DNA from: an uncultured bacterium | GTDB taxonomy: Bacteria > Muiribacteriota > Ozemobacteria > Ozemobacterales > Ozemobacteraceae | NCBI GenBank assembly: GCA_964389325.1 | Contig: CAYMEN010000011.1 | Coordinates: 52,252-116,251, forward strand | Reading direction: 5' to 3' | DNA length: 64,000 nucleotides | Shown: positions 3,312-61,853 of the stretch, one piece after another | How the letters are laid out: the number at the start of each line of letters is the position of its first letter | How positions within the stretch are numbered: position 1 is the first letter of the stretch | Translations under genes and position numbers: made by a program | The notes under the pieces: model-generated | Database searches by the model: none | Told to the model about the DNA's origin: nothing | What the model saw: the letters and a program-made list of their open reading frames with translations, nothing else

Positions 3312-3470
3312 AGTATGCGGCTCAATTGTCGTGCTACGTGTGAGACAGGGAATGCCCAGAAGCATCTTTTCACCGGCAGGGCTGATACTATATATTCTAG
3401 TATAAAAAATGCGTCATCTACGAAGTCTGCGAATCTTCCTCTCGAGCGGTGCAATCTCGCGCAGGATGCG

Positions 3471-3752
3471 TCAGGCGGGGTGGGCGAGGAGGTGGCGGAT
3501 CTTGTCTTTGAAGACCTGGTCGAATGTGCCCCAGACGGCTTTGCCGCCAATCTCGGCGACGGGGACGATGTCGTATCCGCCCGTCAGCGCGAGCGCCTCC
3601 TGCCATGAGGCGTCGTCGGCGTCGACGTCGTGGTCGAGGTAGGCGATGCCCTCTTCATCGAGCCATTCCTTGAATCGGTTGCAGTGGGGACACCAGGTGA
3701 CGGTGTAGATGCGGACCGGCGGACGGGTTGCGGGAACGGATCGCGCCATCAT
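3471..3752 (-). CDS. Glutaredoxin-like (NrdH/Grx) protein
   Basis: 93 aa; 'YTVTWCPHC' CxxC motif and 'IVPV' cis-Pro motif; start overlaps the upstream stop (ATGA). Confidence 0.85.
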   Translation of the reverse strand: MMARSVPATRPPVRIYTVTWCPHCNRFKEWLDEEGIAYLDHDVDADDASWQEALALTGGYDIVPVAEIGGKAVWGTFDQVFKDKIRHLLAHPA

Positions 3753-4636
3753 TTGTCGCTCCTTCCGGTGAACGTTCCGATTACGGCCGCCAGGACTGCC
3801 AGCAGCGCGGAAATCACGAGCGGAACCCAAAGCGGAACGCGGAATTTCCTGTCGAAATCGGTGCTTATGACGGCATCCGACATGATCGTTCTGGTGATGT
3901 CAGAGGGAAGGAACCTCGCAAGGACGAGCGTCCGGTCATCGCCGTCATACCGCACCGACGCCTTCCGGAACAGGCCGTCGGTGAGCCGTTCGGGATCATC
4001 ATGGACGAGCTGCGTCACGGGCACGATCTCGTCGATGGGCTGGGATATCAGCAGACCCTGGGAGAGCATCATGACCCAGTCACCCACGGTGACGGGAAGC
4101 GGGTCGAGGTACGCGGGAACCATGACGGGATTCGGGGCCGCTGCCCCGACTGCCGGTGGGGCATCGGAAACACCGGCGGCGACCGCCAGAGAGGGCAGGC
4201 CGGCCGGCTCGAGACGATGGATGGTGTCGCCGACGCTCGCGATGAGCCCTGCTTTTCCGAGGGTGGCGGCATACAGACAGCCCTGGCGAATCCAGGCGAC
4301 GGCGAGATGAAGGCTCGAAGCGCCTCCGCCGGCCATAGACACGCGGGCAAGCTCGACTTCCTGCCACGTCGACTCGAGGATCTCCGAAAGGGGGGTGCTG
4401 GGGGGGGCTGCCCTCGAGATACGGGAATCAGCGGGAATTCCCGCCAGGCGTGTCTGGCGGGACCCGAGCCGCCGTGCGCCTCGCCCTAGAGACGCGATCG
4501 CGAGGTCGGCAAGATCGCTGCCGGCCGGACCGTCTCCATCGGCCATGATCAGAAGCCCGAGATCCTCTTCCAGGTGCCACCGCTCCTGGTTCGAATCACG
4601 GATCGTGCCAGCCTCGGACTTGTTCCAAATCAGCAC
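3749..4636 (-). CDS. PP2C-fold protein with degenerate catalytic motifs and a C-terminal TM helix
   Basis: 'GTIRDSNQE' (cf. GxxRxxNED), 'IMADGDG' (cf. VADGMGG), 'MLSQGL' (cf. LCSDGL), 'DDRTLVL' (cf. DNxT); C-terminal hydrophobic helix. Confidence 0.6.
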   Translation of the reverse strand: MLIWNKSEAGTIRDSNQERWHLEEDLGLLIMADGDGPAGSDLADLAIASLGRGARRLGSRQTRLAGIPADSRISRAAPPSTPLSEILESTWQEVELARVSMAGGGASSLHLAVAWIRQGCLYAATLGKAGLIASVGDTIHRLEPAGLPSLAVAAGVSDAPPAVGAAAPNPVMVPAYLDPLPVTVGDWVMMLSQGLLISQPIDEIVPVTQLVHDDPERLTDGLFRKASVRYDGDDRTLVLARFLPSDITRTIMSDAVISTDFDRKFRVPLWVPLVISALLAVLAAVIGTFTGRSDK

Positions 4637-4769
4637 CTGTGTGTGCCCTCCCGGTTCTCGTTTCCGAATGACGTTCGAATGTCAGTATACACGTTCTCTG
4701 CATGCTTCACAGATGAATCCGGGCGGATCACGATCCGCCCCTGCGCCACGTGGGCTGGCCAGCTTCATT

Positions 4770-4796
4770 CGCAGATGACGCAGATGGCGCAGATGA
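4770..4796. repeat. Tandem 9-mer (CGCAGATGR)x3; related sequence at 3149-3163 and 39986-40005
   Basis: CGCAGATGA CGCAGATGG CGCAGATGA. Confidence 0.8.
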
Positions 4797-5351: not shown

Positions 5352-7559
5352 TCATTTGCGGAAGATGACGACGGTGAGGGGATCGAGCGTGATCCGGCCG
5401 GCATCGAGAACGAGCCCGGCGGGATCGGTCAGCGGCACCGTGCCCGCGTGTGTGGCATCGACGAGCACGTCGTGATCCGTGGGAACGTCTCCGGAGGGGA
5501 GCGTCAGGGTGCGCGGCCGATGGTCGGCGTTGACGAAGATCCGGTAGGTTTCTCCGCCGGTTGACGTGCAGCGCCAGGCGATGACGAGATCATCCGCGGC
5601 GATCTCGGGCGCCTCGATCAGGCTCACGTTCCTGTCGACGAGTTCCCTGCTTCCGAGACGGAACGCATCCGTCGAACGGCGCAGGGCGATCAGGCCGCGG
5701 GTGAACTCGCGGGTGAGGTGATGTTCGGGAAACCGCTTCGCATCGGTGGCGCGGGCCCAGTCGAACAGGTTGACGGCGTCGGATGAATCGTACGAATCGT
5801 GGATGAAATACGGATGCCGGAATGGCTTTCCCGAAGCGTCGCGAAGCTCGTGGAACTTGTGCTCGGGTTTTCCCTGGCCGAGCCACTGCTTGGTGCGGCC
5901 GAACTCCTGGCCTGCGTGCAGAAAGGCTGTCCCCTGGGATGTGAGGAGGATGGCGTTGCCGAGCCGGATGCGCCGGAGAATCTCGGCCTCGTTCGCGGGA
6001 ATCCAGGGGTCCTTCCGGATCGCCTGGGCAATGACGTCGTGCAGCGGGAGATTGTCATGGGCCTCGATATACTGGACCATATCGCCGGGTGCCGTTGCCG
6101 GGGTGTTCGATGGCTGGCCTTTGATCGCGGCGAACAGCTTTCTGATGTTGCGCGGGCCACCGGTCAGGAACCTGGGCTCGCCTTCACACCCGAAGCCCGA
6201 TTTCAGTTCGTTGCGGAACTCGTCCGAGAAGACGCCGACGCTGTCCGTGACGGCCATCCAGTCCTGGTCCGCGCCTTTTCCGGCGAGGGCGGGATCTTCG
6301 ATGTGCCCCTTGAACGTGCGCCAGCCCTCGCCGATGAAGATGGCCCGGGGATTGATCGCCGCGGCTGCGTCGAACGCTCGCTGGACGACATCCTGCGTGG
6401 CGTCGCCCATCATGTCCCAGCGCATGCCGTCGATGCCGTATTCACGGAACCAGTATGACACCGAGTCGACCAACAGCTTGGCGGCCATCTTGCGGTTGGT
6501 GGCGAGGTTGTTGCCGAAATCTCCCAGCAGGTTGCCCTGGGGGTCCTTGAAAAAGTAGTAGTCGGGAACGATGTCGTTCAGGAAATCGGCCTTCACCATG
6601 TGCGTGTAGACGACGTCGAGAATGACACCCATGCCGGCGGCGTGGACCGCATCAACCAGCTCTTTCAGCTCGGCGATGCGGCGTTCGGCGTCTTCGGGGC
6701 GCCCGGAATACGCGCCGTCGGGCGAGAAATACGAGTGGGGGTCGTAGCCCCAGTTGTACTGGTTGTTCCGGGTCGACCACGCGAGCTCGCGCTCATGCAT
6801 GCGCGTCTCATCACCGAAATACCACGCCATGACCGGCAGCAGCTGGATGTGTGTCACGCCCATGTCCCTGATGTAGGGGAGCCGCTCCCTGAACGCCTTG
6901 AAGGAGCCCCAGCGCGTCGTGAGATTGCCCGCGATTCCCGGGTCGGCCGTGAAATCGCGCACATGCACTTCGTAAATGACGGCGTCTTCCCGCTTTGTAT
7001 AATTACTGATATTTACCTGTGCCGGCGTTTTCCCGGCTGAGCCGGGATCGACGAACGCCGCCTTGCCGACCATATCTCCGCTCGCACCGCCGGAGGTTCC
7101 CGCCGGGTCTATCGTGACGGGGGCCATCGAACGGGCGTAGGGGTCGAGCACGCGTTTCGCGGGAAGGCCGGGATTGGTGACCTCAAACTGGTAATAATAG
7201 CCGCGCACATCGGCAGACGAGGCCGCCGACACGTCCGCCGGCGTCACGGTGCAGCGCCAGACACCCCGGGCACCGCGATGCAGGGCGAGGCGGCCCACCT
7301 GCCTGGTCTGGTCGAGCCTGTCGAAGATGATGACATCGACCTTTGTCGCGAGCGGGGCCCAGAGCGCGAGCTTCGCCTGACCGTTTTTCAGGGTGCAGCC
7401 GAGGTCGTTCCCGTCGTATGCGTCCTGCTCATCGATCGTTCGCCAGGAGAGTGGCGCGTGAAGGCCGCGCCTGGCCGCGCCATCCGTTGGCCCGCACCAG
7501 ACCCCGAGAACCAGAAGTCCCGCAAACAGGGTTCGAATCATCCGGGGACGCTTTGTCAT
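5352..7559 (-). CDS. pulA: Secreted type I pullulanase (GH13)
   Basis: 735 aa; signal peptide; 'YNWGYDP', 'GVILDVVYTH', 'GMRWDMMG', 'FIGEGW', 'YIEAHDN' conserved regions. Confidence 0.9.
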   Translation of the reverse strand: MTKRPRMIRTLFAGLLVLGVWCGPTDGAARRGLHAPLSWRTIDEQDAYDGNDLGCTLKNGQAKLALWAPLATKVDVIIFDRLDQTRQVGRLALHRGARGVWRCTVTPADVSAASSADVRGYYYQFEVTNPGLPAKRVLDPYARSMAPVTIDPAGTSGGASGDMVGKAAFVDPGSAGKTPAQVNISNYTKREDAVIYEVHVRDFTADPGIAGNLTTRWGSFKAFRERLPYIRDMGVTHIQLLPVMAWYFGDETRMHERELAWSTRNNQYNWGYDPHSYFSPDGAYSGRPEDAERRIAELKELVDAVHAAGMGVILDVVYTHMVKADFLNDIVPDYYFFKDPQGNLLGDFGNNLATNRKMAAKLLVDSVSYWFREYGIDGMRWDMMGDATQDVVQRAFDAAAAINPRAIFIGEGWRTFKGHIEDPALAGKGADQDWMAVTDSVGVFSDEFRNELKSGFGCEGEPRFLTGGPRNIRKLFAAIKGQPSNTPATAPGDMVQYIEAHDNLPLHDVIAQAIRKDPWIPANEAEILRRIRLGNAILLTSQGTAFLHAGQEFGRTKQWLGQGKPEHKFHELRDASGKPFRHPYFIHDSYDSSDAVNLFDWARATDAKRFPEHHLTREFTRGLIALRRSTDAFRLGSRELVDRNVSLIEAPEIAADDLVIAWRCTSTGGETYRIFVNADHRPRTLTLPSGDVPTDHDVLVDATHAGTVPLTDPAGLVLDAGRITLDPLTVVIFRK

Positions 7560-7874
7560 GTTCCGATCTCCTCTCGATACCGATTTTGCAGGCCCGGTTC
7601 ATGCCGGGAGGCCCTTCGTATGCAAAATCTTCCTGTTGGCCCGTACACAGGGGCTTTCACCGATAGTATCGACGAAAGGGAAGAGTGTCAACGAATCGGG
7701 TGTGTGAAAAGACGGAAATCTTCAGGCTGGTTCTCGGTTTCGGAGACATTTCGAAATTTTGGAGTGCAAAATTCCCGGAGAGTCGTATAATGCCTGATGA
7801 CCGGGAAGACCCGGTCGTACCCCCGGAGATATAGCATGGGGGTGACTATCAACAGGGAATGGAGGTTGCAGTTC

Positions 7875-9059
7875 ATGATCAAAGTTGCCATTGCCAGTCC
7901 GGTTCGGACGCCCATCGGTTCCTTCGGAGGTGCCCTTGCGCCCCTTTCGTGTGTCGAAATCGGAGCAAAAGCCGTCGAGGCTGTACTCCAGCGCAGCGGC
8001 GTTGCCGCCGACGCGGTCGAAGAGGTCTACCTGGGCAATGTTTTACAAGCGGCCAACGGCCAGAATCCGGCCCGCCAGGCCGCGATGAAGGGCGGCATTC
8101 CCCAGCAGATTCCCGCGACGACGATCAACACCGTTTGCGGATCGGGACTGCACGCGGTCGGGCTCGCGTTCAACGCGGTCCGTGCCGGCCAGGTCGGACT
8201 CGCGCTTGCGGGCGGCATGGAGAGCATGTCGAACGCCCCCTACGCGATGAAGGGCGCCCGCAACGGGATGCGCCTCGGCCACGGCGAAATTCTCGACACC
8301 ATGGTGCTGGATGGCCTGACCTGCCCCTTCAACAATTACCACATGGGCATCACTGCCGAGAACGTCGCGCACGAGTTCAAGGTTTCGCGGCAGGAACAGG
8401 ACGAGTTTTCCCTGCAGAGCCAGCAGCGCGCGGCTGCCGCCCGCCAGACCGGCCGGTTTGCCGATGAAATAGTTCCTGTTATCATAAAAGGCAAGAAAGG
8501 CGACGTCACCTTCAAGGACGACGAATTCATCAGGGCCGACACGTCTCTCGAAAAGCTCTCGGGTCTCAGGCCCGCGTTCAAGAAAGACGGAACCGTCACG
8601 GCCGGCAATGCGTCAGGCATCAACGACGGCGGCGCCGCGATGCTTGTCGCGTCCGAAGAGAAATGCAAGGCCCTCGGGCTGGCCCCGATGGTCTACATTC
8701 GCGGCTACAGCCTGGTTGGCCTGCGGCCCGAAATCATGGGCATGGGCCCCGTCTACGCGGTCCGCAAACTGCTCGAGGCCCAGAAGCTGACGGTCGCCGA
8801 CATCGACCTGTTCGAGCTGAACGAGGCGTTCGCCTCCCAGTCGATTGCGGTGGGCAAAGAGCTGGGCGTCGATTCCCGCAAGGTGAACGTGAACGGCGGC
8901 GCAATTGCGCTTGGCCATCCGATCGGCGCCAGCGGTGCCCGCGTTCTCATCACGCTCATGTACGAGATGAAGCGGAGCAACAAAAAGCTCGGCATTGCCT
9001 CGCTGTGCATCGGCGCGGGGATGGGCATCGCGATGCTCGTCGAGAACCCGAACATCTGA
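7875..9059 (+). CDS. atoB: Acetyl-CoA acetyltransferase (thiolase)
   Basis: 'TINTVCGSG', 'GGMESMS', 'NASGINDG', 'ELNEAFA', 'GHPIGASGAR', 'SLCIGAGMG'; GGAGG RBS. Confidence 0.95.
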   Translation: MIKVAIASPVRTPIGSFGGALAPLSCVEIGAKAVEAVLQRSGVAADAVEEVYLGNVLQAANGQNPARQAAMKGGIPQQIPATTINTVCGSGLHAVGLAFNAVRAGQVGLALAGGMESMSNAPYAMKGARNGMRLGHGEILDTMVLDGLTCPFNNYHMGITAENVAHEFKVSRQEQDEFSLQSQQRAAAARQTGRFADEIVPVIIKGKKGDVTFKDDEFIRADTSLEKLSGLRPAFKKDGTVTAGNASGINDGGAAMLVASEEKCKALGLAPMVYIRGYSLVGLRPEIMGMGPVYAVRKLLEAQKLTVADIDLFELNEAFASQSIAVGKELGVDSRKVNVNGGAIALGHPIGASGARVLITLMYEMKRSNKKLGIASLCIGAGMGIAMLVENPNI

Positions 9060-9081
9060 ACCGGAGGACAGGAGAACGATC

Positions 9082-10332
9082 ATGAAAGAAGCACCTCATC
9101 TGAAACTCGACAAGAGCCTCGCCGAGTTCGAGCTGGCGAAGACCCTGGTTCCTGGCGGTGTCGCGGGCATCCGGCGTCCCTACAACTTCGTCGAGGGCGA
9201 GTATCCGATCTATTTCACCGACGGCCAGGGGTGCCGCGTGCGCGACGTCGACGGGAACGAGTACATCGACTACCTGTGCGCCTACGGCCCGATCATCCTC
9301 GGCTACCGCGAGAAGGAAGTCGATGATGCGGTCATCCGCCAGATCCAGGAGCACGGGTTCTGTTTTTCACTGACACAGCCGATCCAGAACAAACTCGTCG
9401 AGAAACTGCGCGAAGTGATCCCGAGCTGCGAGATGGCCGCGTTCGTGAAGACCGGCTCCGACGCGACGACCCTCGCCACGCGCGTTGCCCGCTGCTATAC
9501 CGGTCGCACGAAGATCCTGCGGTGCGGGTATCACGGCTGGCACGACTGGTGCGTCGAGGTGAAGGGCGGCATTCCCGAGAAGCTGTACGAGGACATCCAC
9601 GAGTTCCACTACAACAACCTCGAGGAGCTCGAGACTTTGCTGAAACAGCACGGCGGCGATACCGCCGGCATCATCGTCACCCCGTTCGGCCACCCGCTCG
9701 CCCTGCCCCTCCAGGAGCCCAAGCCGGGCTTCCTCCAGAGCGTACGCAAACTGGCCGATACATATGGATGCGTATTGATCTTCGACGAGATCCGGTCCGG
9801 CTTCCGCGTCTCGATCGGCGGCGCGCAGAAACACTACGGTGTCACGCCCGACCTTTCCTGCTTCGGGAAGGCGCTCGCGAACGGATACGAGATCAGCGCG
9901 CTCGTCGGCAAGGCCCCGTTCATGAAGAAGCTCGAGAAAGAGGCGTTCGTCTCCTCGACGTTCTTCCCGAACAGCCTGGCCATGGTCGCGGCCCTCAAGA
10001 CGCTCGAGATCATGCAGCGCGACAAGGTGCTCGACGTGATGTGGAAGAAAGGCGAGACGTTCATCGCCGACATGCGCAAGGTCGTCGCCGATGCCGACTG
10101 CGGCGCGGAAGTGTCCGGCATCCCGATGATGCAGTTCATCACGTTCGCCAAGGATGCGACCGGCGCCTACAAGAAGAAGCGGCACGACTTCTACGCCCAG
10201 CTGATCCGGCGCGGCGTGTTCATGCAGCCGTACCACCACGGCTACATCTGCCATCGGCACACCGAAGCCGATCTGAAACACACCATCGACATGATCGCCG
10301 AGTCGCTCGCATACGTGCGGGCGAAGTACTGA
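9082..10332 (+). CDS. kat: Class III PLP aminotransferase, probable 3-aminobutyryl-CoA aminotransferase
   Basis: 'VPGGVAGIRRPYNFVEGEYPI', 'LIFDEIRSGFR', 'PDLSCFGKALANG', 'FMQPYHHGYICHRH' match my recollection of Cloacimonas Kat; sits inside the lysine fermentation operon. Confidence 0.8.
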   Translation: MKEAPHLKLDKSLAEFELAKTLVPGGVAGIRRPYNFVEGEYPIYFTDGQGCRVRDVDGNEYIDYLCAYGPIILGYREKEVDDAVIRQIQEHGFCFSLTQPIQNKLVEKLREVIPSCEMAAFVKTGSDATTLATRVARCYTGRTKILRCGYHGWHDWCVEVKGGIPEKLYEDIHEFHYNNLEELETLLKQHGGDTAGIIVTPFGHPLALPLQEPKPGFLQSVRKLADTYGCVLIFDEIRSGFRVSIGGAQKHYGVTPDLSCFGKALANGYEISALVGKAPFMKKLEKEAFVSSTFFPNSLAMVAALKTLEIMQRDKVLDVMWKKGETFIADMRKVVADADCGAEVSGIPMMQFITFAKDATGAYKKKRHDFYAQLIRRGVFMQPYHHGYICHRHTEADLKHTIDMIAESLAYVRAKY

Positions 10333-10356
10333 GCGCATGGAGGTATATCTGTAGAT

Positions 10357-11187
10357 ATGGATAAGCTGATCATCACCGCCGCCATCTGCGGCGCGGAAGT
10401 GACCAAGGACCACAACCCGGCCGTGCCGTACACGCTGGCCGAGATCGCCCGCGAGGCGAAAGCCGCCCGTGATGCGGGGGCGTCCATCATCCACCTGCAT
10501 GTGCGCGAGGACGACGGGAAGCCGACCCAGTCGGCGAAACGGTTCGAGGCCGCCATCAAGGCGATCCGCGAGGTTTGCCCCGACGTCATCATCCAGCCCT
10601 CGACAGGCGGCGCCGTCGGCATGACGAACGAGGAGCGGATGCAGCCGCTCCAGCTGAAGCCCGAAATGGCCACGCTCGACTGCGGCACCGTGAACTTCGG
10701 CGGGGACGAGATCTTCGTGAACACCGAGAACACGATCATCGAGTTCGCGGCACGCATGAAGGCGAACGGCATCAAACCCGAGATCGAGGTGTTCGACAAG
10801 GGAATGATAGATCTCGCTATACGATTGAACCGCAAGGGCCACATTCCCGGACCGATGCACTTCAACTTCGTTCTTGGAACCTCGTGCGCCATCGCCGCCG
10901 AGCCGCGCGATCTGCTCTACATGGCCCAGAGCATCCCGGCCGGCAGCACCTTCACGGCGAGCGGCATCGGCCGCAACGCCTTCACGACGGCGGCCGTCGC
11001 GATCGTGCTGGGCGGCCACGTGCGCGTGGGCTTCGAGGACAACGTGAACCTCGCGAAGGGCGTTCCCGCGAAATCGAACGGGGAGCTCGTCGCGAAAGTC
11101 GTCCGTATCGCTCATGAACTGGGCCGCGAGGTTGCGACCCCGGCCGAGGCGCGCGCGATTCTCGGCCTGACCGGAGGAAACGCATGA
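10357..11187 (+). CDS. kce: 3-keto-5-aminohexanoate cleavage enzyme
   Basis: 'LIITAAICGAE', 'IIHLHVRE', 'QPSTGGAVGM', 'GHVRVGFEDN'. Confidence 0.95.
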   Translation: MDKLIITAAICGAEVTKDHNPAVPYTLAEIAREAKAARDAGASIIHLHVREDDGKPTQSAKRFEAAIKAIREVCPDVIIQPSTGGAVGMTNEERMQPLQLKPEMATLDCGTVNFGGDEIFVNTENTIIEFAARMKANGIKPEIEVFDKGMIDLAIRLNRKGHIPGPMHFNFVLGTSCAIAAEPRDLLYMAQSIPAGSTFTASGIGRNAFTTAAVAIVLGGHVRVGFEDNVNLAKGVPAKSNGELVAKVVRIAHELGREVATPAEARAILGLTGGNA

Positions 11188-12505: not shown

Positions 12506-12537
12506 TGGCGCGCCAGACATCAGGACAAGGAGAGATT

Positions 12538-13578: not shown

Positions 13579-13591
13579 CGGGGAACGACGA

Positions 13592-17598: not shown

Positions 17599-19161
17599 AT
17601 GTCACACAGCAAATTGAATCTCGATCCGAAGCGGGTTGCCGAGGCGCGCGAACTGGCTCACAAGATTGCCCTCGACACCCAGAAGTTCATCGACCGTCAC
17701 ACGACGGTGACCGTCGAGCGCGCCGTGCTGCGCCTCCTGGGCATCGACGGCGTCGATGCCGAAGAGGTGCCGCTGCCGAACGTCGTCGTCGCGCACCTGC
17801 AAAAGGCGGGCAAGCTGGCGCTGGGCGCCGCGAACGCGATCGGAAACGCGGTCCTCAGAACCGGCCTCGCGCCCCAGCAGATCGCCGAGCGCACCTCGAA
17901 AGGCGAGCTCGATTTGGCCGCCCTTCCGATGGGCGATCTGTTCGAAGTCCGGGCGAAGGTGACGGAACTGGCCCGCGCGACCGTCGAGCGCATCCGGTCG
18001 AACCGGGCGCGGCGCGAGGAGACGCTGAGCGCCGTAGGCGACAAGACGGGGCCGCTCCTGTACGTCATCGTCGCCACGGGAAATATTCACGAAGATATCG
18101 TTCAGGCCCGCGCCGCGGCGAAACAGGGCGCCGACGTCATCGCCGTCATTCGCACGACCGGCCAGAGCCTGCTCGACTACGTTCCGTTCGGGGCCACGAC
18201 CGAAGGCTTCGGCGGCACCTATGCCACCCAGGAGAACTTCCGGCTCATGCGCGCCGCCCTCGACGAGGAGGGCGGAAAACTCGGCCGCTACATCAGGCTC
18301 TGCAACTACTGTTCCGGGTTGTGCATGCCCGAGATCGCCTCGATGGGGGCCCTCGAACGGCTCGACGTCATGCTCAACGACGCCCTGTACGGCATCCTGT
18401 TCCGCGACATCAACATGCAGCGCACGATGGTCGACCAGTATTTCTCCCGCATCATCAATGGGTTCGCCGGCGTCATCATCAACACCGGCGAGGACAACTA
18501 CCTGACCACCGACGACGCGTTCGAGGCCGCGCACACCGTCCTGGCCTCGCAGTTCATCAACGAGCAGTTCGCCGTGCTGGCCGGGCTGCCCGAGGAACAG
18601 ATGGGGCTGGGCCACGCGTTCGAGATGGATCCCGAGCTGAAGAAAGGCTTCCTCTACGAACTGGCGCAGGCACAGATGGCCCGTGAGATCTTCCCGCGCG
18701 CGCCCCTCAAATACATGCCGCCGACCAAGTTCATGACCGGCAACATCTTCCGCGGCCACGTGCAGGACGCCCTGTTCAACATGGTCACCACGATGACGAA
18801 CCAGCGCATCTGCCTGCTGGGCATGCTCACCGAGGCGATCCACACGCCCTTCATGTCGGACCGGTATCTGGCCATAGAAAACGCTCGTTATATATTCAGC
18901 ACGATGGAAGGGCTCGGCGACGAGATCGAGTTCAAGAAAGGCGGCGTCATCGAGCAGCGCGCCCATGCGGTCCTGGACGATGCCGCCCGGCTGCTCGCCG
19001 AGATCGAGCGCGATGGCCTGTTCAAGACGCTCGAAAAAGGCAAATTCGCGGGCGTGAAACGGCCGGTCAACGGCGGCAAGGGCCTCGAAGGGGTCGTGGA
19101 GAAAGATACCGCTTACGTCAATCCGTTCATCGACCTGATGCTGGGAGGGAAGAAATCATGA
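17599..19161 (+). CDS. kamD: D-lysine/beta-lysine 5,6-aminomutase alpha subunit
   Basis: 'HTTVTVERAVLRLLGIDG', 'YVIVATGNI', 'NYCSGLCMPEIA', 'KYMPPTKFMTG'; alternative start at 17587. Confidence 0.96.
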   Translation: MSHSKLNLDPKRVAEARELAHKIALDTQKFIDRHTTVTVERAVLRLLGIDGVDAEEVPLPNVVVAHLQKAGKLALGAANAIGNAVLRTGLAPQQIAERTSKGELDLAALPMGDLFEVRAKVTELARATVERIRSNRARREETLSAVGDKTGPLLYVIVATGNIHEDIVQARAAAKQGADVIAVIRTTGQSLLDYVPFGATTEGFGGTYATQENFRLMRAALDEEGGKLGRYIRLCNYCSGLCMPEIASMGALERLDVMLNDALYGILFRDINMQRTMVDQYFSRIINGFAGVIINTGEDNYLTTDDAFEAAHTVLASQFINEQFAVLAGLPEEQMGLGHAFEMDPELKKGFLYELAQAQMAREIFPRAPLKYMPPTKFMTGNIFRGHVQDALFNMVTTMTNQRICLLGMLTEAIHTPFMSDRYLAIENARYIFSTMEGLGDEIEFKKGGVIEQRAHAVLDDAARLLAEIERDGLFKTLEKGKFAGVKRPVNGGKGLEGVVEKDTAYVNPFIDLMLGGKKS

Positions 19162-19977: not shown

Positions 19978-21759
19978 ATGGAAGCCGGCATCCGGAACGC
20001 GCAGTCCCGAATGCCGGCTTTCTCGTTTCTGCGAACCCTTCTGGAGCATGTGCGGACGTCGTCGAGAGCGGGAGTATTCATCGAGGTCGTGCTGCCCGTC
20101 CTCCCGCTCTTTTTACTGTATCTCCTCCAGCCCGGGGCTCCCGCCGCCATCGATATGCCGCTTCACCTGCGGGCCGCGAACGATTATGCCCTCGTGCTCG
20201 TCTCGACGAAAGGGATTCCCGATTGGGACCCCTTCGTGTTCGACGGCTTCGGAGCCCTGACATTCCGCTACTCCGGGCAGTTGCCGCTGTTTATTGCATC
20301 TCTCTTCGTGCTGGCCGGGTTCGCGCCGGAACTCGCTCTCAAACTGGCCGTGGTTGGATTTGCGCTTGCTGGGTCCTGGGGAATGCGCGAATTTCTCAGG
20401 TCGGAAGGGCTTTCCTGGCCGCGCCGGATCGTCGGAAGCCTGTGCCTCGTTTCCGGTCCCGGCGTTGCGATGCATCTCTATCACAACTTCTTCTTCCAGC
20501 ATCTGTGCGCGGTTCTGCTCTTCCCCTGCGTGCTGGCGGGCATGAGGACGAATTTCCGCCGGCTGGCCGTCGCGACAGGAGTCATGTGCTGGACGCATCT
20601 CCAGATGGCGTTCGTCTGCCTGTGCCTTGCCGCCGTCGTCGCCGTCATACGATCCGTCATGGCGGGATCGCCGCGGCAATTCGCCACGTTCCTTGCCGCT
20701 TCCGTCATCGGCGGCTGTCTGGCGGCGCCCTTTCTGCTGCCGGCGATGCTCTCGGTGAAGGAGGCGCATTTCGAAGGGAAGAACAAGGTCAGGCCCGGGA
20801 TCGAGTCGCTTTTCATCGACGAGGTGTTCCGGTCGGACAAGGACGCCAACGGCAGAAGCGTTTCGGTCGAGATCGGCCGGGCGCAGGGATTGATGCCGGC
20901 CCTCGACTGCCTCCTGAACCGCGGGGGGCGGATTCACTCGGAATACGGCTGGGTCCTGTTCCGGTTCCTGCGGTCCTGGATCCTCCTGGCGGTGGTGATT
21001 CTGCTGGGGCTCGCGATCGCCGGCGCGGCCGTCGCACGCAGGAGGGGCGCCCTTCCGTGCGGGTTGGCCGGGTTCCTGGCCTGTCTGGCGATGTTCCGGT
21101 GGTCCATGCCTTTCTGGCAGCTGCTTTCGCCGCTCGCGGAGCTTCTCGAATTCTCCTGGCGCCTGCTGATCCCGGCGCAGATCCTTCTCACCCCCGTGAT
21201 GACCGACGGGGGATTCGCATGTGCCCGGATGGCCGGAAGAAGGCTGCCGGGAATCGCCGTGCCGGTCCTGTTCCTGGCCCTGTTCGGCGGACTGCCGGCG
21301 ATTTCCGCCGTTTTCGCGGGGATAAGCAAACCGTTCGGAACATCGGATATCGAGTACTATATGAGCGAGGGAAGAGCGGTGGCTCCCGTGTTCAAGCCGT
21401 TTCACGCCCCGCTGGCTGCCGCCGCCCGTCCCGATGCGATCCCCCTCTTCTCCGCGACGATCGTTCGGGGCGCCGGCAGGGTGTTCCCCGGCGAGCCCGG
21501 CCTCGCCGGAACGACGTTTCGCGCCGATGTCGCCAGCGGCGGGGCGACGATCCGCATTGCGGCCCATTACGATCGCGACTGGCGGCTGACGGCCGACGGC
21601 CGGGAGATCCGCCTGGCACCGGATCGTAGGGACGGAACCCTGACGGCTGTTCTGCCGGCCGGTCTTCACGACATCGTTCTCGAGCGGAAAAGCCCGTCGG
21701 GCCGGTGGATCGGCGCTTTTCTGATGATGGCCGGATTCGCGGCGCTCGCGGCCCTGTGA
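19978..21759 (+). CDS. Polytopic membrane protein, PTPS-related/YfhO-like (GT-C-type glycosyltransferase candidate)
   Basis: About 11-12 hydrophobic segments; early loop 'PDWDPFVFDGFGALTFRYSGQLP'; 'QFSWR'-like 'LEFSWR'; C-terminal soluble domain plus a final TM helix; start uncertain. Confidence 0.6.
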   Translation: MEAGIRNAQSRMPAFSFLRTLLEHVRTSSRAGVFIEVVLPVLPLFLLYLLQPGAPAAIDMPLHLRAANDYALVLVSTKGIPDWDPFVFDGFGALTFRYSGQLPLFIASLFVLAGFAPELALKLAVVGFALAGSWGMREFLRSEGLSWPRRIVGSLCLVSGPGVAMHLYHNFFFQHLCAVLLFPCVLAGMRTNFRRLAVATGVMCWTHLQMAFVCLCLAAVVAVIRSVMAGSPRQFATFLAASVIGGCLAAPFLLPAMLSVKEAHFEGKNKVRPGIESLFIDEVFRSDKDANGRSVSVEIGRAQGLMPALDCLLNRGGRIHSEYGWVLFRFLRSWILLAVVILLGLAIAGAAVARRRGALPCGLAGFLACLAMFRWSMPFWQLLSPLAELLEFSWRLLIPAQILLTPVMTDGGFACARMAGRRLPGIAVPVLFLALFGGLPAISAVFAGISKPFGTSDIEYYMSEGRAVAPVFKPFHAPLAAAARPDAIPLFSATIVRGAGRVFPGEPGLAGTTFRADVASGGATIRIAAHYDRDWRLTADGREIRLAPDRRDGTLTAVLPAGLHDIVLERKSPSGRWIGAFLMMAGFAALAAL

Positions 21760-41515: not shown

Positions 41516-41608
41516 GCCGGAATAATAAAGAATATTAGCTATATAATATGTAGTATATAAACTCGCCATTGTCGCGGGACGGGAGAGATCGAACACCGGA
41601 GAAGCCCG

Positions 41609-47064: not shown

Positions 47065-49671
47065 CTATACCACCTCGATGACCGGTTCGTCGGCCCGCAC
47101 GTCGAGACAAAGCGCCGAGCCGTCCGGAATCGCGTTGGCGATCAGCCGCCGGGCGAGGCGCGTCTCGACCTCTTTCTGCACGAGCCGCTTGAGAGGCCGG
47201 GCTCCGTAGACCGGGTCGTAGCCTCGCTCGATCAGCCATTCCTTCGCGGCAGGGGTGACGTCGAGGGTCAGCCGCCGCTCCGAGAGCCGCTTCCGCAGAT
47301 CGCCGAACTGGAGCTCGATGATCGAGCCAAGCTGCTCCTTCGAAAGCGGCGTGAACAGGACGATGTCGTCGACGCGGTTCAGAAACTCCGGTCGGAATGA
47401 GCGGCGCAGCTCTCCCAGCACGTCTTTCCGGACGTCCGCGGCGAGCTCGCCGGTGGCGGATATGCCGTCAAGCAGCGTCTGGGAACCGATGTTGCTGGTC
47501 ATGATGACGACGACGTTGCGGAAATCGACGGTGCGCCCCTGCGAATCGGTGAGCCGGCCGTCGTCGAGCAGCTGGAGCAGCACGTTGAACACGTCGGGGT
47601 GTGCTTTCTCGATCTCGTCGAACAGCACGACGGAATACGGTTTGCGGCGCACGGCCTCGGTGAGCTGGCCGCCCTCGTCGTACCCGACGTAGCCTGGAGG
47701 CGCGCCGATCAGCCGCGAGACGGCGTGCTTTTCCATATACTCGCTCATATCGATCCGGACCATGTTCTCCTCGGTGTCGAACAGGGCCTGGGCGAGAGCC
47801 CGCGCCAGCTCGGTCTTGCCGACGCCGGTGGGGCCGAGGAAGATGAACGAGCCGATCGGGCGGCGCGGGTCCTTGATCCCGGCCCGAGACCGCAGCACGG
47901 CGTCCGCGACCAGGCTGACCGCCTCGTCCTGCCCGATGACGCGCTCGTGGAGCAGCGTGTCGAGCTTCAGCAGCTTCTCGCGCTCGCCTTCGACGAGCCG
48001 CGTGACCGGAATGCCCGTCCAGCGGCTGACGATCGCGGCGATCTCCTCCTCGTTCACCTCCTCGCGCACAAGTCGGCCGGTCGACTGCTTGCGCTTCAGC
48101 TCGGCCTCGAGTTCGGCCAGTTGCTTCTGGGTGGCCGGAAGCCGGCCGTGGCGAAGCTCGGCGGCCTTTTCGAGGTCATACGAACGCTCGGCCGCCTCGA
48201 CGTCGCGATGCATCTTCTCGATCTCGGCGCGAAGGCCCTGCACTTTCCGGATCACGTCCCGCTCGCTTTCCCATTGGGCTTTCATCGAATCAGAGCGCGT
48301 TTTCAGGTCCGCGATCTCCTTCCGGACGTCGGCCAGCCGCGCCGCGCTCGCCTCGTCCTTCTCTTTCGCGAGCGCCGCTTCCTCGATCTGGAGCTGCATG
48401 ATGCGCCGTGTGACCGTGTCGAGCTCGGTGGGCATGGAATCTATATCGGTGCGTATCGTCGCGCAGGCCTCGTCGACCAGGTCGATGGCCTTGTCGGGCA
48501 GGAACCGGTCGGTGATGTACCGGTGCGACAGCGTCGCCGCGGCGACGATCGCCGAGTCGGCGATGCGGACGCCGTGGTGCACCTCGAACCGCTCCTTGAG
48601 CCCGCGCAGGATCGAGATCGTGTCGGGAACGTCAGGCTGTTCGACGAGCACTGGCTGGAAACGGCGTTCGAGCGCGGCGTCCTTCTCGACGTGCCTGCGA
48701 TACTCGTCGAGCGTCGTCGCGCCGATGCAGTGAAGCTCCCCGCGCGCCAGCAGCGGCTTGAGCATATTGCCGGCGTCCATCGAGCCCTCGGCCTTGCCGG
48801 CCCCGACGATCGTGTGGAGCTCGTCGATGAACAGGATGACGCGGCCCTCGCTCTGCTTGATCTCGGCCAGAACCGCCTTCAGCCGCTCCTCGAACTCGCC
48901 GCGGAACTTCGCGCCGGCGATCAGGGCGCCCATGTCGAGCGCGAAAATGGTCTTGTCTTTCAGCCCTTCGGGGACGTCGCCCCGCAGGATGCGCTGGGCG
49001 AGCCCTTCTGCGATGGCCGTCTTGCCGACCCCGGGTTCGCCGATCAGGACGGGGTTGTTCTTCGTCTTGCGCGACAGGATGCGGATGACGCGGCGGATCT
49101 CGTCGTCGCGACCGATGACCGGATCGAGCTTGTTCTTCCCCGCCTCGCGGACGAGATCGCGACCGTACTTCTCGAGCGCTTCATAGGTCTGCTCGGGATT
49201 TGCCGAGACGACGCGCTGGTTGCCGCGGATCTCGGTGAGCGCCTTGAGAAGCCGCTCGCGGTCGATCTTGAACGAGGCGAGCAGCTTTCCCGACGGCGTC
49301 GATGAACCCGAGGCGATCGCCGCGAGCACCAGGTGCTCGACCGACAGATACTCGTCCTTCAGGGTCTTCATCTCGGATTCCGCGCTCACGAGAATCTGCG
49401 ACAGTTCCCGCGTGACATACACCTGGTCGGGCCGCATACCCGGCCCCGAGACGCGCGGCTTCCGGCCGATTTCCCCGCTCAGCCTCGATTTCAGGTCCTC
49501 GAGCGGAACGTCCATCCGGTTGAAAAGACGGGGAATGAGCCCTTCCGCGTCCTCCAGCAGCGCGGCGAGCAGATGCTCCGGCGAAACTTCGGTGTGTCCG
49601 TACTCGACGGCGAGGTTCTGCGCCCTCTGCAGCGCTTCCTGCGACTTCTGCGTCAAACAATTTATATCCAT
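47065..49671 (-). CDS. clpB: ATP-dependent chaperone ClpB
   Basis: 868 aa; 'GEPGVGKT', 'LFIDELH', 'GPTGVGKTE', '[11 protein letters not shown]', coiled-coil middle domain. Confidence 0.98.
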
Positions 49672-49731
49672 AGCTATTTAACCTCCGATGTCACCGAACG
49701 GGCGGTACACATGTTATCCGAGTCTTGACTA

Positions 49732-51292: not shown

Positions 51293-51317
51293 CAGCGGAA
51301 AGGAAACAGAGACGATT

Positions 51318-56479: not shown

Positions 56480-56667
56480 CAATATCGAATCCTATGCATG
56501 AAGGATAGAGAAGTGTCTGTGTGGAGTTCGATGGATTCAGGAAATCCGTGCAAAAGAGCGCCGATTGAATACATGAGCGAAACGAGACTTGCACATGAAT
56601 TTCAATCGCTCGGAGCATAAAAAAAATGAATGGAACAGATGATGACGGCTCGAGAGAATGCACGCGC

Positions 56668-57616: not shown

Positions 57617-57682
57617 GGCCCCCGCATTGTACCGCACAACACCGTTTCTGTACAGTTGCGGGAATAACCCTGCTCGTCTTCT

Positions 57683-57731: not shown

Positions 57732-58865
57732 TCAGAAATCGACAGCCATCGAGACCGAATACCGCCGGTCCTCGCGGTCGCCCGGCCGCTCACCGAGTTC
57801 ATCGGAATACGTCGCGAACTCGAATCGCGCTTCCCTGAACTTCGCGGTCGCCCCGGCGCTCAGATACCCGCCCCTGAGGCCGCCTCTTATCGTGAGCCAT
57901 GTCCGCATGCGGGCTTCCATGCCGAGCCTGAGCTTGGAAAACAACGTGCCGTCGCTCGTGATATCCGCCAGGTCGGCGGCCAGAAGCAGTTTGCGCGACC
58001 GTTCCGGCGAGCCCGACAGTGGGCGGATCGCCGTGCCGACGTCGACGCGCCGCGGCAGGCGCCCGATGCGCGAATCGATCTCGGACTCGAACACGTTGCT
58101 CACGGAAAAGCCGACCGTCTGGTTCCAGGGATTCGCGAGTTTGTAGAGCACCCCGCCGTCGATATCGAGCGCGGCTCCCTTGAGCGAATCGTTCCGGAGA
58201 TCGTCTTCGGAAAGCGAGGCGAAGTCGCGCGCATCATACTCACGGTCGAGGGTTCGCCGGGAAAGGAACTTCATTCCCAGTCCCCAGTGGCCCGCGGCGG
58301 AATCGCCGAACACGACGCGGTTTCCGATCGGCCGGGCGATCGCGCCCACCAGCACCGAATCGACGTCGGCTTTCGCCCTGATACGAGGGTTGGTCGGGCG
58401 TTCGACGCCGATCTGGGCGATCGTCTGGTACAGAAAGCCGGCGCCGAAGCCGGTGCTTCCGAGGTAATACGCGAGATTGGATGCCACGAGGCGGGACTGC
58501 TGCCCCATGATCTCGCTCAGGACACGGTTGTTCGAGGCGCGCGCTTCGGGGGTGTCGGCATCCGAAAGGCCGTCGGTCTTGTTCTCGACACGCCGCATGT
58601 CCTGGTTGATCTCGGCCGTCGCGTCGAGAATCGCATACGCCTTGTCGGTTACCTGGCTCAGGCCGGCCGGGTTGGAAAACAATGCCTGCTGGTCGTCGGC
58701 GACGGCGACGAACGCTCCGCCCATTCCCTGGCTGCGCGGCGTTTCGTAGGTCAGCGGGTGAGCCTGCCCGGCAAACGCCGTTCCGGTGATCGAAATGCAG
58801 GCCAGCCAGACGAGAAGCCCGGCCATGGATATATATTTAAAGTTATACATGTTTCGGCTGATCAT
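57732..58865 (-). CDS. Outer-membrane beta-barrel protein (TraF-like/FadL/PorV-type N-terminus)
   Basis: 'PRSQGMGGAFVAVADDQQALFSNPAGL' N-terminal motif; alternating beta strands; terminal Phe; start may be downstream. Confidence 0.75.
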   Translation of the reverse strand: MISRNMYNFKYISMAGLLVWLACISITGTAFAGQAHPLTYETPRSQGMGGAFVAVADDQQALFSNPAGLSQVTDKAYAILDATAEINQDMRRVENKTDGLSDADTPEARASNNRVLSEIMGQQSRLVASNLAYYLGSTGFGAGFLYQTIAQIGVERPTNPRIRAKADVDSVLVGAIARPIGNRVVFGDSAAGHWGLGMKFLSRRTLDREYDARDFASLSEDDLRNDSLKGAALDIDGGVLYKLANPWNQTVGFSVSNVFESEIDSRIGRLPRRVDVGTAIRPLSGSPERSRKLLLAADLADITSDGTLFSKLRLGMEARMRTWLTIRGGLRGGYLSAGATAKFREARFEFATYSDELGERPGDREDRRYSVSMAVDF

Positions 58866-59718: not shown

Positions 59719-59913
59719 GCTGCCTCCCCCGAATGACGGAATACACCCGGGATATCGGCATATCCGCGTCGTCCGTGAAGAAATTTGTGCGACTTCCCGG
59801 GGCGCGTCGCGATGCGTCCTGTTCGACACGATGCGTTCGCATCAAAACTTTTGACGGGTGGTGTGGTATGAATGGGATAGAAACGTTCTTCATTCTTGAA
59901 AGGGGTCATTTCG

Positions 59914-60819
59914 ATGCGTTTTCCGAACCGTGTGCTTTGGGTTGTCGGCATGCTGTTTCTTGCGACGGGCCTCCTGGCGGGGCCGTTCGACAGCCGGCGG
60001 GTCGTGGTCGATTCGCGTGCGTCGGATGCCGCTTCAATGACGGTGGCAATTCCGGCAAGCGGAACGGTCGAGGTCCGCGTGCGGGTCGCGTCCTACAACA
60101 TTGCCCACGCCCGCGGAAACGAAGAGGGAAAGACGAAGAACGAGATTGCCCGCAAGGAAAATCTCGACGGAATAGCGAACCTGCTGAAATCGCACAAGAT
60201 CGATATTGCCGGCTTCACCGAGATTTCGAAGGGCGATCTGCGCGCGAAGTTCAGGAACCAGCCGAAATACCTGGCGGAACACGCCGGCGGCATGCACTAC
60301 GTCTACGCTGAAAACTACAGGCGCGCGTTCGGCCTGCTTGCAACGCAGGGAAATGCCGTTCTCAGCAGATTTCCGATTCTCTGGTCACGGAATCACAAAC
60401 TCTATCGCTCCGACGAAAAGCACGAGCAGCGGGGCTGTCTCGAGGCGCTTCTCGACCTGGGAAATGACAGACGGCTGCGGGTGCTTGTCGCACATCTGAG
60501 CCTCGAAGCCGACGAGTCGACGAAGCAGATCGAAGACATCTGGGACATGGTTCGCAAGAGCCCGGAGCCTGTCCTGCTTCTGGGCGATTTCAACTCGCGT
60601 CCGAAGAGCGACCGTGTCAAGTGGCTGTCTTCACGGATGAAGGATGCGACGGCGAACGTCAACACGACGTTCCTGAACAAGCCCGACGTGAAGATCGATT
60701 ACATCTTCACCCACGGACCGGTCCGCGCCGGAACGGCCCTCGTCGACGGCTTCAGACAGGGCTACTCCGACCACGGCTGTCTCATCAACGAGTTCCGGAT
60801 CGCCTATCCCCGTAAATAA
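59914..60819 (+). CDS. Exported endonuclease/exonuclease/phosphatase (EEP) family protein
   Basis: 'VASYNIAH', 'FTEI', 'GNAVLSRFPI', 'HLS', 'LLGDFNS', 'IDYIF', 'SDH'. Confidence 0.88.
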   Translation: MRFPNRVLWVVGMLFLATGLLAGPFDSRRVVVDSRASDAASMTVAIPASGTVEVRVRVASYNIAHARGNEEGKTKNEIARKENLDGIANLLKSHKIDIAGFTEISKGDLRAKFRNQPKYLAEHAGGMHYVYAENYRRAFGLLATQGNAVLSRFPILWSRNHKLYRSDEKHEQRGCLEALLDLGNDRRLRVLVAHLSLEADESTKQIEDIWDMVRKSPEPVLLLGDFNSRPKSDRVKWLSSRMKDATANVNTTFLNKPDVKIDYIFTHGPVRAGTALVDGFRQGYSDHGCLINEFRIAYPRK

Positions 60820-60830
60820 TATATTATAAA

Positions 60831-61853
60831 CTATAACAAAGGAACGCCACGGTCTCGGAAGGCCCGCTCTGTCTCGATAGGCCAGACACTCGACTGGACT
60901 TCCCCCAGGTGCGCCTTTTCGAGCAGATACATGCAGAGGCGCGACTGGCCGATGCCGCCGCCGATGCTGAGCGGAAGAGTATTCTCGAGGACGCCCCGAT
61001 GGAACTCGAGCTCGCGGCGCGAAGAGAGGCCTGCCAGGTCGAGTTGCCTGGCGAGGGCCGCGGCGTCGACGCGGATGCCCATCGACGAGAGTTCGAGTGG
61101 CTTCTGGCGGACGGTGTCCCAGACGATGATGTCGCCGTTGAGGCCGCGCGTCGCCTGGCCCGTCGGCGTGCTCCAGTCGTCGTAATCGGCGGCGCGCACG
61201 TCATGGGGCTTCCCGCTGCCGAGCGGGTGGCCGATGCCGATCAGGAACACGACGCCGTGCTCGCGGGCGATCTCCGCTTCCCGCCGGTTCGGTTCCAGGC
61301 CTGGGAAGCGGGCCTCGAGTTCCTCCGAATGGATGAACGTCACGCGGCCGGGAAGCTGCTGCGCCAGGGCGGGAAATGCCTGTGTGAGACCGCGATGCGT
61401 GTCGAGGATCGCGGACCATATATTGTTGACGGTATATTTCAGGAACTCGAGGTTGCGCTCGGCAGGGGTCACGGTGCGTTCCCAATCCCACTGATCGACA
61501 TAGATGCTGTGGATCTCGTCGACGAGCTCGTCCTTCCGGATGGCGTCCATGTCGGTGTAGAGCCCGCGTCCGGCCTCGATGCCGTAGCGGCCGAGGGCGT
61601 GGCGCTTCCATTTCGCGAGGCTGTGAACGACCTCGATCGACTCGGGCCGGAACCTCGTGACGAACGAGACCGGCGTCTGGGTGCCGGCCAGGTCGTCCTG
61701 CAGGCCGTTCCCCGTCCGCAGAAAGCGGGGCGCCGAGACACGGATCAGGTTGAGCCGCTCGGCGAGCCGGTGCTCGAAGACGTCTTTGACGTGCTTGATC
61801 GCATGTTCGGTTTCAAACAGATCGAGAACCGGCCGGTACTTCTCTGGAAACAT
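60831..61853 (-). CDS. asnA: Aspartate--ammonia ligase
   Basis: 'EVVHSLAKWKR', 'GLYTDMDAIRKDE', 'HSIYVDQWDWE', 'RAADYDDW', 'IGGGIGQSRLCM'. Confidence 0.96.
   Translation of the reverse strand: MFPEKYRPVLDLFETEHAIKHVKDVFEHRLAERLNLIRVSAPRFLRTGNGLQDDLAGTQTPVSFVTRFRPESIEVVHSLAKWKRHALGRYGIEAGRGLYTDMDAIRKDELVDEIHSIYVDQWDWERTVTPAERNLEFLKYTVNNIWSAILDTHRGLTQAFPALAQQLPGRVTFIHSEELEARFPGLEPNRREAEIAREHGVVFLIGIGHPLGSGKPHDVRAADYDDWSTPTGQATRGLNGDIIVWDTVRQKPLELSSMGIRVDAAALARQLDLAGLSSRRELEFHRGVLENTLPLSIGGGIGQSRLCMYLLEKAHLGEVQSSVWPIETERAFRDRGVPLL

Follow-up and report, generated by a model that had tools for sequence, protein, structure and literature searches.

Why does one short gapped palindrome recur every few kilobases in a GC-rich stretch of bacterial DNA, and mostly inside genes? 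The stretch analysed here (the window) comprises 64 kb of contig CAYMEN010000011.1 from an uncultured member of the Riflebacteria lineage, and the word in question is ATA-N8-TAT, a gapped, A/T-only dyad with six specified bases in a 62% GC genome. The window contains 25 exact copies, the first starting at position 3390 and the last spanning 60821-60834. This is the number given in an earlier note made from the letters alone, whose hand counts of neighbouring spacings were close to the exact values (N7, 6; N9, 2; N11, 1) and whose quoted codon contexts (thiolase, kce and others) are correct. Dinucleotide-preserving shuffles (n=100) yielded a mean of 1.11 copies and a maximum of 5, and when all 64x64 trinucleotide pairs were compared at gaps of 0-14, ATA-8-TAT ranked first in significance. 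The note had described the excess as specific to the N8 spacing; this is incomplete, as the N10 and N12 spacings, which it had not counted, are enriched as well.

The excess is real, and is not a by-product of codon, peptide or composition effects. For the controls, 48 genes were called from open reading frames and the GC content of third codon positions (GC3), corresponding to a coding density of 92%, and were shuffled either by exchanging synonymous codons gene by gene, so that protein sequence and codon usage stay unchanged, or by permuting whole codons. Coding sequence holds 18 copies, as compared to about 1.1 left after either kind of shuffle within genes, an in-gene enrichment of approximately 10- to 16-fold; set against the codon-shuffled controls that the earlier note had proposed, the N8 excess in the window genes thus persists. 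The note's statement that most copies are intragenic holds for these 18 of 25, the other 7 not being fully inside genes. The coding copies are distributed over reading frames 0, 1 and 2 as 7, 8 and 3, and the encoded peptides are unrelated. In-frame ATA isoleucine codons are rare in the window (58, or 5% of all Ile codons), and 23 of the 58 (40%) lie inside N8, N10 or N12 arms. Occurrence in all three frames, survival of the codon shuffles, conservation of the arms in relatives (see below) and the use of the rare ATA codon together indicate a signal at the level of DNA that is under selection, as the note had supposed. An explanation by peptides or codon phase was ruled out by the all-frame occurrence, the differing peptides and the survival under shuffling; a dispersed repeat of the repetitive extragenic palindrome or miniature inverted-repeat transposable element type does not fit either, the spacers being unrelated coding sequence without a stem. 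Genes of high GC3 carry 17 N8 copies versus 1.24 expected, and those of low GC3 carry 1 versus 0.5 (small numbers). Intergenic copies number 6 versus 2.4 expected; since this enrichment is only about 2.5-fold, the motif is a feature of gene bodies and not a promoter element.

Homologues of ClpB place the window in Candidatus Ozemobacteraceae (Riflebacteria/Rifleibacteriota), with amino-acid identities of 97% and 90% to the nearest named relatives and 80% to Candidatus Ozemobacter sibiricus. Look-ups of the window's own kamA and clpB products as exact proteins returned no record. Loci for comparison were obtained via kamA (L001), via ClpB (L081-L085) and via the PilB-like protein (L088-L092), and included Ca. 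O. sibiricus (L086/L087) and other Ozemobacteraceae (L094-L096); the kamA genome scan returned mostly distant taxa and was used for L001 and negative controls only. All seven loci with 78-92% nucleotide identity to the window are enriched in ATA-N8-TAT, with observed/expected counts of 8/0.8 (L081), 7/0.7 (L091), 10/0.4 (L092), 5/0.8 (L089), 3/0.14 (L088), 5/0.8 (L001) and 4/0.9 (L085). In the pooled relatives (112 kb, gaps 1-15) ATA-8-TAT was again the most significant trinucleotide pair, and the excess recurs in independent assemblies from NCBI and the Joint Genome Institute (JGI). Motif-bearing relatives are represented by GCA_035373905.1, GCA_029547365.1, GCA_036567845.1 and the JGI contigs Ga0208197_1000006 and Ga0116253_10000014, and the comparison side by Ca. 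O. sibiricus (GCA_003327425.1) and GCA_049305675.1. Where N8 sites of the relatives could be aligned, most recur in the window (6/6 in L081, 6/9 in L092, 4/6 in L091 and 3/3 in L089). Ca. O. sibiricus (66% GC), in contrast, has no copy at N8, N10 or N12, and enrichment was likewise absent from the Ozemobacteraceae loci L094/L095 (48% GC) and L096 (52% GC), from a locus of a distant Riflebacteria metagenome-assembled genome (L011), from the distant Riflebacteria-like locus L090 and from six Oscillospiraceae loci of about 62% GC. From the enriched genus-level loci and the unenriched others, the signal belongs to a single genus-level clade and appeared once this had split from Ca. O. sibiricus. 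The chromosome-wide reach which the earlier note had inferred is shown for the 64-kb window and the seven loci of relatives only. The Ca. O. sibiricus locus L087 has over-represented gapped palindromes of another kind, the top ones being CGA/TCG pairs at several spacings (CGA-N14-TCG, 64 versus 24.6), which probably reflect the codon periodicity of a 66% GC genome.

These comparisons also bear on the view that the excess is a mere by-product of composition, of codon or dipeptide usage, of an RNA or peptide motif, or of faulty assembly. A/T-rich trinucleotides do cluster locally, and the intergenic copies lie in AT-rich stretches at about 2.5 times expectation. However, neither dinucleotide nor synonymous-codon nor codon-order shuffles generate the excess, the copies occupy three frames with differing peptides, the NCBI and JGI assemblies of relatives repeat the excess independently, equally GC-rich unrelated genomes lack it, and the spacer has no hairpin complementarity. 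For practical purposes, the by-product or artefact reading is refuted by the controls, and we assign it next to no weight.

Of the N8 sites in the window, 17 are covered by the seven relatives, and divergence was assessed at these. Differences amounted to 15/204 (7.4%) in the arms, 68/272 (25.0%) in the spacers and 104/544 (19.1%) in the flanks (Fisher p=3e-7). At third codon positions, A/T within arms was conserved in 87%, 71% and 84% of cases in three groups of relatives, as compared to 51%, 35% and 44% elsewhere (p=5e-4, 9e-3 and 6e-5 versus the arms), so that the comparison of synonymous sites in orthologues, another proposal of the earlier note, likewise comes out in favour of selection. 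Paired ATA and TAT trinucleotides were conserved more often than unpaired ones, with 81% versus 61% in L081 and 79% versus 47% in L085; in the comparison with Ca. O. sibiricus, paired and unpaired trinucleotides were conserved equally (21% versus 21%). The arms persist and the spacer is largely replaced at sites 10345, 21347, 29766, 54733, 56482 and 58833. Judged from these alignments, the N8 arms are under purifying selection and the spacers are free. Gains of sites involve changes in both arms, as at site 29154, where the window and L091 have ATA..TAT, L088 has ATG..TGC, and L089 and L092 have ATG..AGC; the same both-arm pattern is found at 19417, 32113, 13510 and 52114, with amino-acid changes in some. 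One-mismatch variants of the N8 word are not depleted (260 versus 195-251 at phase-matched spacings), which argues, as weak evidence, against a conversion drive, for instance of the very short patch repair type. The individual N8 copies are as follows (coordinates refer to the whole 64-kb stretch, and the strand is given as '.' throughout).

3390..3403, strand '.', intergenic, between hisS and a hypothetical gene
6069..6082, strand '.', pullulanase-like gene, frame 1
6999..7012, strand '.', pullulanase-like gene, frame 1
8469..8482, strand '.', thiolase gene, frame 0, using the ATA Ile codon (ATA GTT CCT GTT ATC)
9762..9775, strand '.', class-III aminotransferase gene, frame 2
10345..10358, strand '.', covering the ribosome-binding site and start codon of the BKACE gene (kce); arms the same in L092, 7/8 spacer bases changed
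10807..10820, strand '.', BKACE gene, frame 0 (ATA GAT CTC GCT ATA); kept in L092
13003..13016, strand '.', gene upstream of kamA, frame 0; kept in L001 and L092
14257..14270, strand '.', kamA, frame 2; kept in L001 and L092
19417..19430, strand '.', kamE-like gene; present in L091, ATG..TAC in L001 and ACG..TTC in L092; looks like a lineage-specific gain
21347..21360, strand '.', gene of a hypothetical 593-aa protein; same arms and changed spacer in L091
23912..23925, strand '.', B12-binding radical SAM gene, frame 0, with a GC-only spacer core; present in L089, lost in L091
24645..24658, strand '.', radical SAM gene; window-specific
27664..27677, strand '.', PilB/MshE-like ATPase gene; kept in 4/4 relatives
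29766..29779, strand '.', PilB/MshE-like gene; arms kept in 4/4 relatives, spacer different in each
32113..32126, strand '.', CHASE2 cyclase gene; window-specific, with an apparent stepwise gain (ATG..GAT in L091 and L092, ATG..TAT in L088)
41522..41535, strand '.', AT-rich intergenic stretch after purD; composition may account for part of it
41543..41556, strand '.', in the same AT-rich intergenic stretch after purD as the copy at 41522..41535
47737..47750, strand '.', clpB; kept in L081 and L085, GTA..TAT in Ca. O. sibiricus
48443..48456, strand '.', clpB (ATA CGC ACC GAT ATA); synonymous ATC..ATC in Ca. O. sibiricus
49664..49677, strand '.', across the clpB start codon; arms the same in L081 and L085
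54733..54746, strand '.', gene of a hypothetical 1007-aa protein; same arms in L081 and L085, 5/8 spacer bases changed
56482..56495, strand '.', intergenic; same arms in L081, 5/8 spacer bases changed
58833..58846, strand '.', near the start of a hypothetical gene; same arms and changed spacer in L081
60821..60834, strand '.', between two convergent genes

At the clpB site 48443, the synonymous ATC..ATC of Ca. O. sibiricus shows that the motif is made by two rare ATA codons.

When 65 distinct sites of the clade are combined in a symmetrised profile, the invariant ATA is followed outwards by a weak alternation of T (48%), A (41%) and T (46%), and the information outside the 3-bp arms, 0.2-0.4 bit per position, consists of this T/A alternation only. 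Inwards from the arm, T/G and then C/T are preferred, giving a half-site of approximately tATATc, and the remaining spacer is free. The bases next to the arms are A/T in 37/50 cases, exactly as the earlier note had counted, and the complete form TATA-N8-TATA is found in 5/25 copies. Complementarity within the spacer is no higher than the symmetrised profile predicts, which indicates that there is no hairpin and that the two half-sites act independently; a hairpin or cruciform was ruled out on these grounds, and a longer hidden repeat or recombinase arms were ruled out by the flank profile. TATA-N8-TATA is the inner part of loxP, and the cores of loxP and dif had led the note to consider minimal core sites for a tyrosine recombinase, to which another site-specific recombinase or a transposase may be added; the sole literature match to the pattern string was a loxP paper. 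However, the 11-13 bp outer arms of loxP and dif have no counterpart here (<=0.4 bit per position, alternating T/A only), the spacers vary freely without conservation, essential genes harbour sites at one per few kb, with thousands of copies inside genes by extrapolation, and no recombinase gene is nearby. With the outer arms absent, the recombinase-core reading is largely refuted, and we regard it as very improbable.

The half-sites of ATA-N8-TAT are 3-4 bp long and their centres 11 bp apart, i.e. one helical turn, and the spacing counts of the window show no second peak at two helical turns. ATA-N10-TAT and ATA-N12-TAT occur in 18 and 16 copies, respectively, and odd spacers are not enriched; 13 coding copies each of N10 and N12 contrast with about 1.2-1.3 each after codon shuffles (about 10-fold). 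The other enriched pairs (ATA-9-ATA, TAT-9-TAT, TAT-8-ATA and so on) all hold both arms in the same alternating-AT register. When cases of arm extension were removed, the counts of innermost matches were 24 for N8, 10 for N10, 10 for N12 and 1-7 for other spacings. Extra conservation of the arms was not observed for N10 (arm versus spacer divergence 15% versus 12%) or N12 (14% versus 18%), and some single sites of these classes are stable across relatives:

18083..18098, strand '.', N10 (ATAT-N8-ATAT), kamD-like gene; arms identical in L001, L091 and L092
35380..35395, strand '.', N10; arms the same in L091 and L092
52114..52129, strand '.', N10 (and N12 from 52112), ATP-citrate lyase gene; kept in L081 and L085, ACA..CAT in Ca. 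O. sibiricus
25220..25237, strand '.', N12, asparagine synthase gene; arms the same in L089 and L091

Taken together, the N8, N10 and N12 sites follow one another along the 64 kb with somewhat greater regularity than expected by chance (coefficient of variation 0.70, P=0.009), which is the only hint in the window of the periodicity at 10-90 kb that marks HIP1-type palindromes. The LysR box T-N11-A, the OxyR box ATAG-N7-CTAT and the Fur box were rejected as matches, as they would require N9 or N5 spacing, neither of which is enriched. The even-numbered series might suggest DNA mechanics without a dedicated reader: flexible TpA steps about one helical turn apart would help a general nucleoid protein to bend or wrap the DNA, or would serve the management of supercoils. 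Against a background of about 30, there are 48 copies of TA-N8-TA, 63 of TA-N10-TA and 40 of TA-N12-TA, the arms extend outwards as alternating T/A, and the spacing is near one helical turn. Mechanics should, however, produce a smooth dependence on distance, yet TA-TA distances of 11 and 13 are at or below background; moreover, the base preceding TA is specifically A (67%) at distance 10, the second peak expected at two turns is absent, and the signal is confined to one genus. We consider this explanation improbable.

Our preferred reading, held at a probability of roughly 0.4, is that ATA-N8-TAT is a selection-maintained, lineage-specific recognition site on double-stranded DNA for a reader with dyad symmetry. 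This reader would most likely be a DNA-binding protein, abundant and homodimeric, with one ATA half-site (extended consensus approximately tATATc) bound per subunit, and the one-turn spacing of the half-site centres would place both on the same face of the DNA. The geometry matches that of the 14-bp dyad sites bound by dimers of the CRP/FNR/NtcA type, e.g. GTA-N8-TAC for NtcA, which consist of 3 bp, N8 and 3 bp, have the dyad between base pairs and half-site centres one turn apart, and share with ATA-N8-TAT the independent half-sites and the free spacer. CRP/FNR operators, however, lie in promoters and number tens to hundreds, whereas ATA-N8-TAT is mostly intragenic (18/25 copies, with no cognate regulator identified) and is estimated to occur a thousand or more times per genome. 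The N8 sites are scattered at about 1 per 2.5 kb through gene bodies, irrespective of gene, strand and frame, which together with the weak intergenic enrichment probably points to a role of the reader at the level of the chromosome; nucleoid organisation, segregation or marking would be conceivable, rather than gene-by-gene regulation. Palindromic sites of chromosome organisation that are read by dimers are known in matS, parS and the binding sites of Noc and SlmA, but these are 12-16 bp long, rich in information, limited to tens of copies and restricted to particular domains of the chromosome.

Several points weigh against a dimeric reader. The window, which encodes ordinary metabolism, a pilus ATPase, ClpB and the like, contains no candidate gene for it. 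The enrichment of about 10-fold in genes for N10 and N12, but not for N9 or N11, is left unexplained by a rigid dimer. With about a thousand individually dispensable sites, only weak selection could act on each; the abundance of such motifs already known (uptake sequences, perhaps HIP1) is attributed at least in part to molecular drive, and a drive that restores mutated sites could also give apparent conservation. Moreover, the excess was established on 64 kb and seven loci of relatives only.

The main rival to a dimeric reader, about half as probable in our estimate, is a methylation-linked motif similar to the highly iterated palindrome HIP1 of cyanobacteria. ATA-N8-TAT would then be the target of an N6-adenine methyltransferase with bipartite specificity, e.g. 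an orphan enzyme similar to Type I in which two half-subunits pair to form the specificity subunit, and the abundance of the motif would stem from methylation-dependent biased repair or from selection for a dense epigenetic mark. Elhai reportedly proposed methylation-dependent biased repair for HIP1. Two arms of 3 bp around an 8-bp gap, with an A on each strand about 9 bp apart, fit such an enzyme: symmetric Type I targets read by half-size specificity subunits, e.g. TCA-N8-TGA and GAA-N7-TTC, also consist of trinucleotide halves, a long non-specific spacer and an adenine per strand, and ATA-N8-TAT falls within the range of Type I bipartite sites in general (halves of 3-5 bp, spacer of 5-8 bp, adenine per strand). 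Like HIP1, it is hyper-abundant, found in all frames and conserved between genomes (PMC5861425), and every high-frequency cyanobacterial palindrome is paired with a cognate methyltransferase (PMC4390886). On the other hand, host genomes normally avoid Type I targets or are indifferent to them, and those of active restriction systems are usually avoided, whereas ATA-N8-TAT is 10-fold enriched and conserved; the window contains no hsd genes (neither hsdM nor an hsdS-like gene). A fixed-spacer enzyme leaves N10 and N12 unexplained, conservation being seen at N8 only and enrichment at N10 and N12 too. The undepleted one-mismatch variants speak against a repair drive, and the motif is absent from the Nanomotif supplementary tables searched. 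The sole methyltransferase of the window is a small TrmN/HemK-like enzyme with a weak match (65 bits versus a cut-off of 350).

This small S-adenosylmethionine-dependent methyltransferase (56852-57637, - strand) shows an MTS match and a borderline match to the Eco57I type (25.6 versus a 25.3-bit cut-off); its best NCBIfam match, at the 65 bits just given, is the tRNA m6A37 enzyme TrmN. Its substrate is probably RNA or protein, but no other enzyme of the N6-adenine type is encoded in the window.

An unlikely alternative to recognition by a dimer is a signal for DNA uptake or recombination, in which a pilus-associated receptor prefers DNA carrying the motif and recombination spreads it by molecular drive. 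The uptake sequences of Pasteurellaceae (USS) and Neisseriaceae (DUS) occur at about 1 per 1-2.5 kb in any coding frame, form genus-level dialects and are enriched in resident genes. ATA-N8-TAT resembles them in its density of 1 per 1.5-2.5 kb, its genic presence in all frames, its apparent concentration, on small numbers, in native-looking, high-GC3 genes and its origin inside one genus-level clade; the window also contains a homologue of type IV pilus ATPases, and HIP1 was recently tied to transformation efficiency (bioRxiv 10.1101/2024.09.10.611283). USS and DUS, however, are asymmetric, contiguous 9-12-mers of high information, a form that ATA-N8-TAT does not have: as a symmetric dyad of six A/T bases it carries little information and would be a poor mark of self, with about 20-50 chance copies per 20 kb in low-GC loci and hence weak discrimination against AT-rich foreign DNA. 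Competence-specific genes or a receptor were not identified.

Positions 7797-19958 of the window comprise a complete lysine-fermentation cluster with genes for a thiolase, a class-III aminotransferase, BKACE (kce), two CoA-transferase subunits, a kdd-like protein, kamA, KamB/KamC (a reactivase, KamC being a MutS domain V ATPase) and kamD/kamE-like proteins. Apart from one close relative (94%), the nearest homologues of kamA show <=73% identity and belong to Clostridia, Bacteroidales and Fusobacteria, which suggests horizontal movement of the lysine operon; the operon carries the motif of its host at normal density. The PilB-like locus directly adjoins the lysine operon in L092 (positions 13744-23483, corresponding to 10282-19940 of the window), whereas in the window it lies about 7 kb further away, with the genes at 19978-26704 in between, indicating a rearrangement or insertion within the clade. 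The PilB/MshE-type secretion ATPase itself (26708-30187, - strand, 1159 aa) matches Pfam families in residues 63-558 only (MshEN, T2SSE), and its roughly 600 C-terminal residues are without a family match. A two-gene ATP-citrate lyase adjoining clpB (49901-53162) is conserved across Ozemobacteraceae; according to the annotation of its L081 orthologue, its domains are ATP-grasp_2/Citrate_bind and CoA_binding/Ligase_CoA/Citrate_synt. Four small genes without Pfam match at 33277-35733 have low GC (55-58%, GC3 0.65-0.82) and contain no N8 copy despite more A/T, and the block may be more recently acquired DNA. An (AT)n-type run in the intergenic region after kamA (14960-15000, ATATATATATAATACATAATAAA) is the source of three N0 (ATATAT) matches. 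No tRNA genes or Rfam families were found in the window.

Among known systems, HIP1 is the closest to ATA-N8-TAT, which represents a case of a hyper-abundant, selected genomic word; new are its bipartite form, its A/T-only composition and its occurrence in an uncultured GC-rich lineage. Both HIP1 and the alternate cyanobacterial highly iterated palindromes (GCGATCGC) are short, hyper-abundant palindromes found in genes in all frames, conserved between related genomes above background and specific to lineages. HIP1 is over-represented 15- to 300-fold (PMC5861425, PMC4390886), and selection and a function at the level of the nucleoid have been argued for it by Xu et al. (PMC5861425). ATA-N8-TAT shares with HIP1 the over-representation, the presence in all frames as well as between genes, and the conservation, but not the form of a contiguous, GC-rich 8-bp word containing known methyltransferase sites: it is gapped (3+8+3), consists of A/T only, comes with lesser classes at N10 and N12 and lacks a known cognate methyltransferase, and its host is a member of an uncultured Riflebacteria lineage instead of a cyanobacterium. 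Full-text searches of the literature for the pattern string, gapped palindromes and Ozemobacter, and of the Nanomotif supplements, returned no description of it. On balance, the evidence tips slightly towards a previously undescribed, hyper-abundant chromosomal word of gapped, A/T-only form, which would have arisen within one genus-level clade of Ozemobacteraceae after the split from Ca. O. sibiricus, would be maintained in genes by selection despite the cost of rare codons and of some amino-acid changes, and would be read as a chromosome-wide architectural or epigenetic signal by a lineage-specific dimer or a bipartite methyltransferase.

To our knowledge, few hyper-abundant short motifs are known in bacteria, namely USS/DUS, HIP1, Chi and KOPS, and each of them opened up some chromosome biology; HIP1 is still unexplained after about 30 years. 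ATA-N8-TAT would be a second, independent highly iterated palindrome, from a different, uncultured phylum. Since a sister genus lacks the motif, its origin is recent, so that the genes which set relatives with the motif apart from those without it could lead directly to its reader or writer protein, an approach which is hard for HIP1, nearly universal as it is in cyanobacteria. A DNA-level signal can, moreover, supply a large share of the usage of a rare codon, here 40% for ATA, which is of relevance for models of codon usage and for the binning and classifying of metagenomic contigs.

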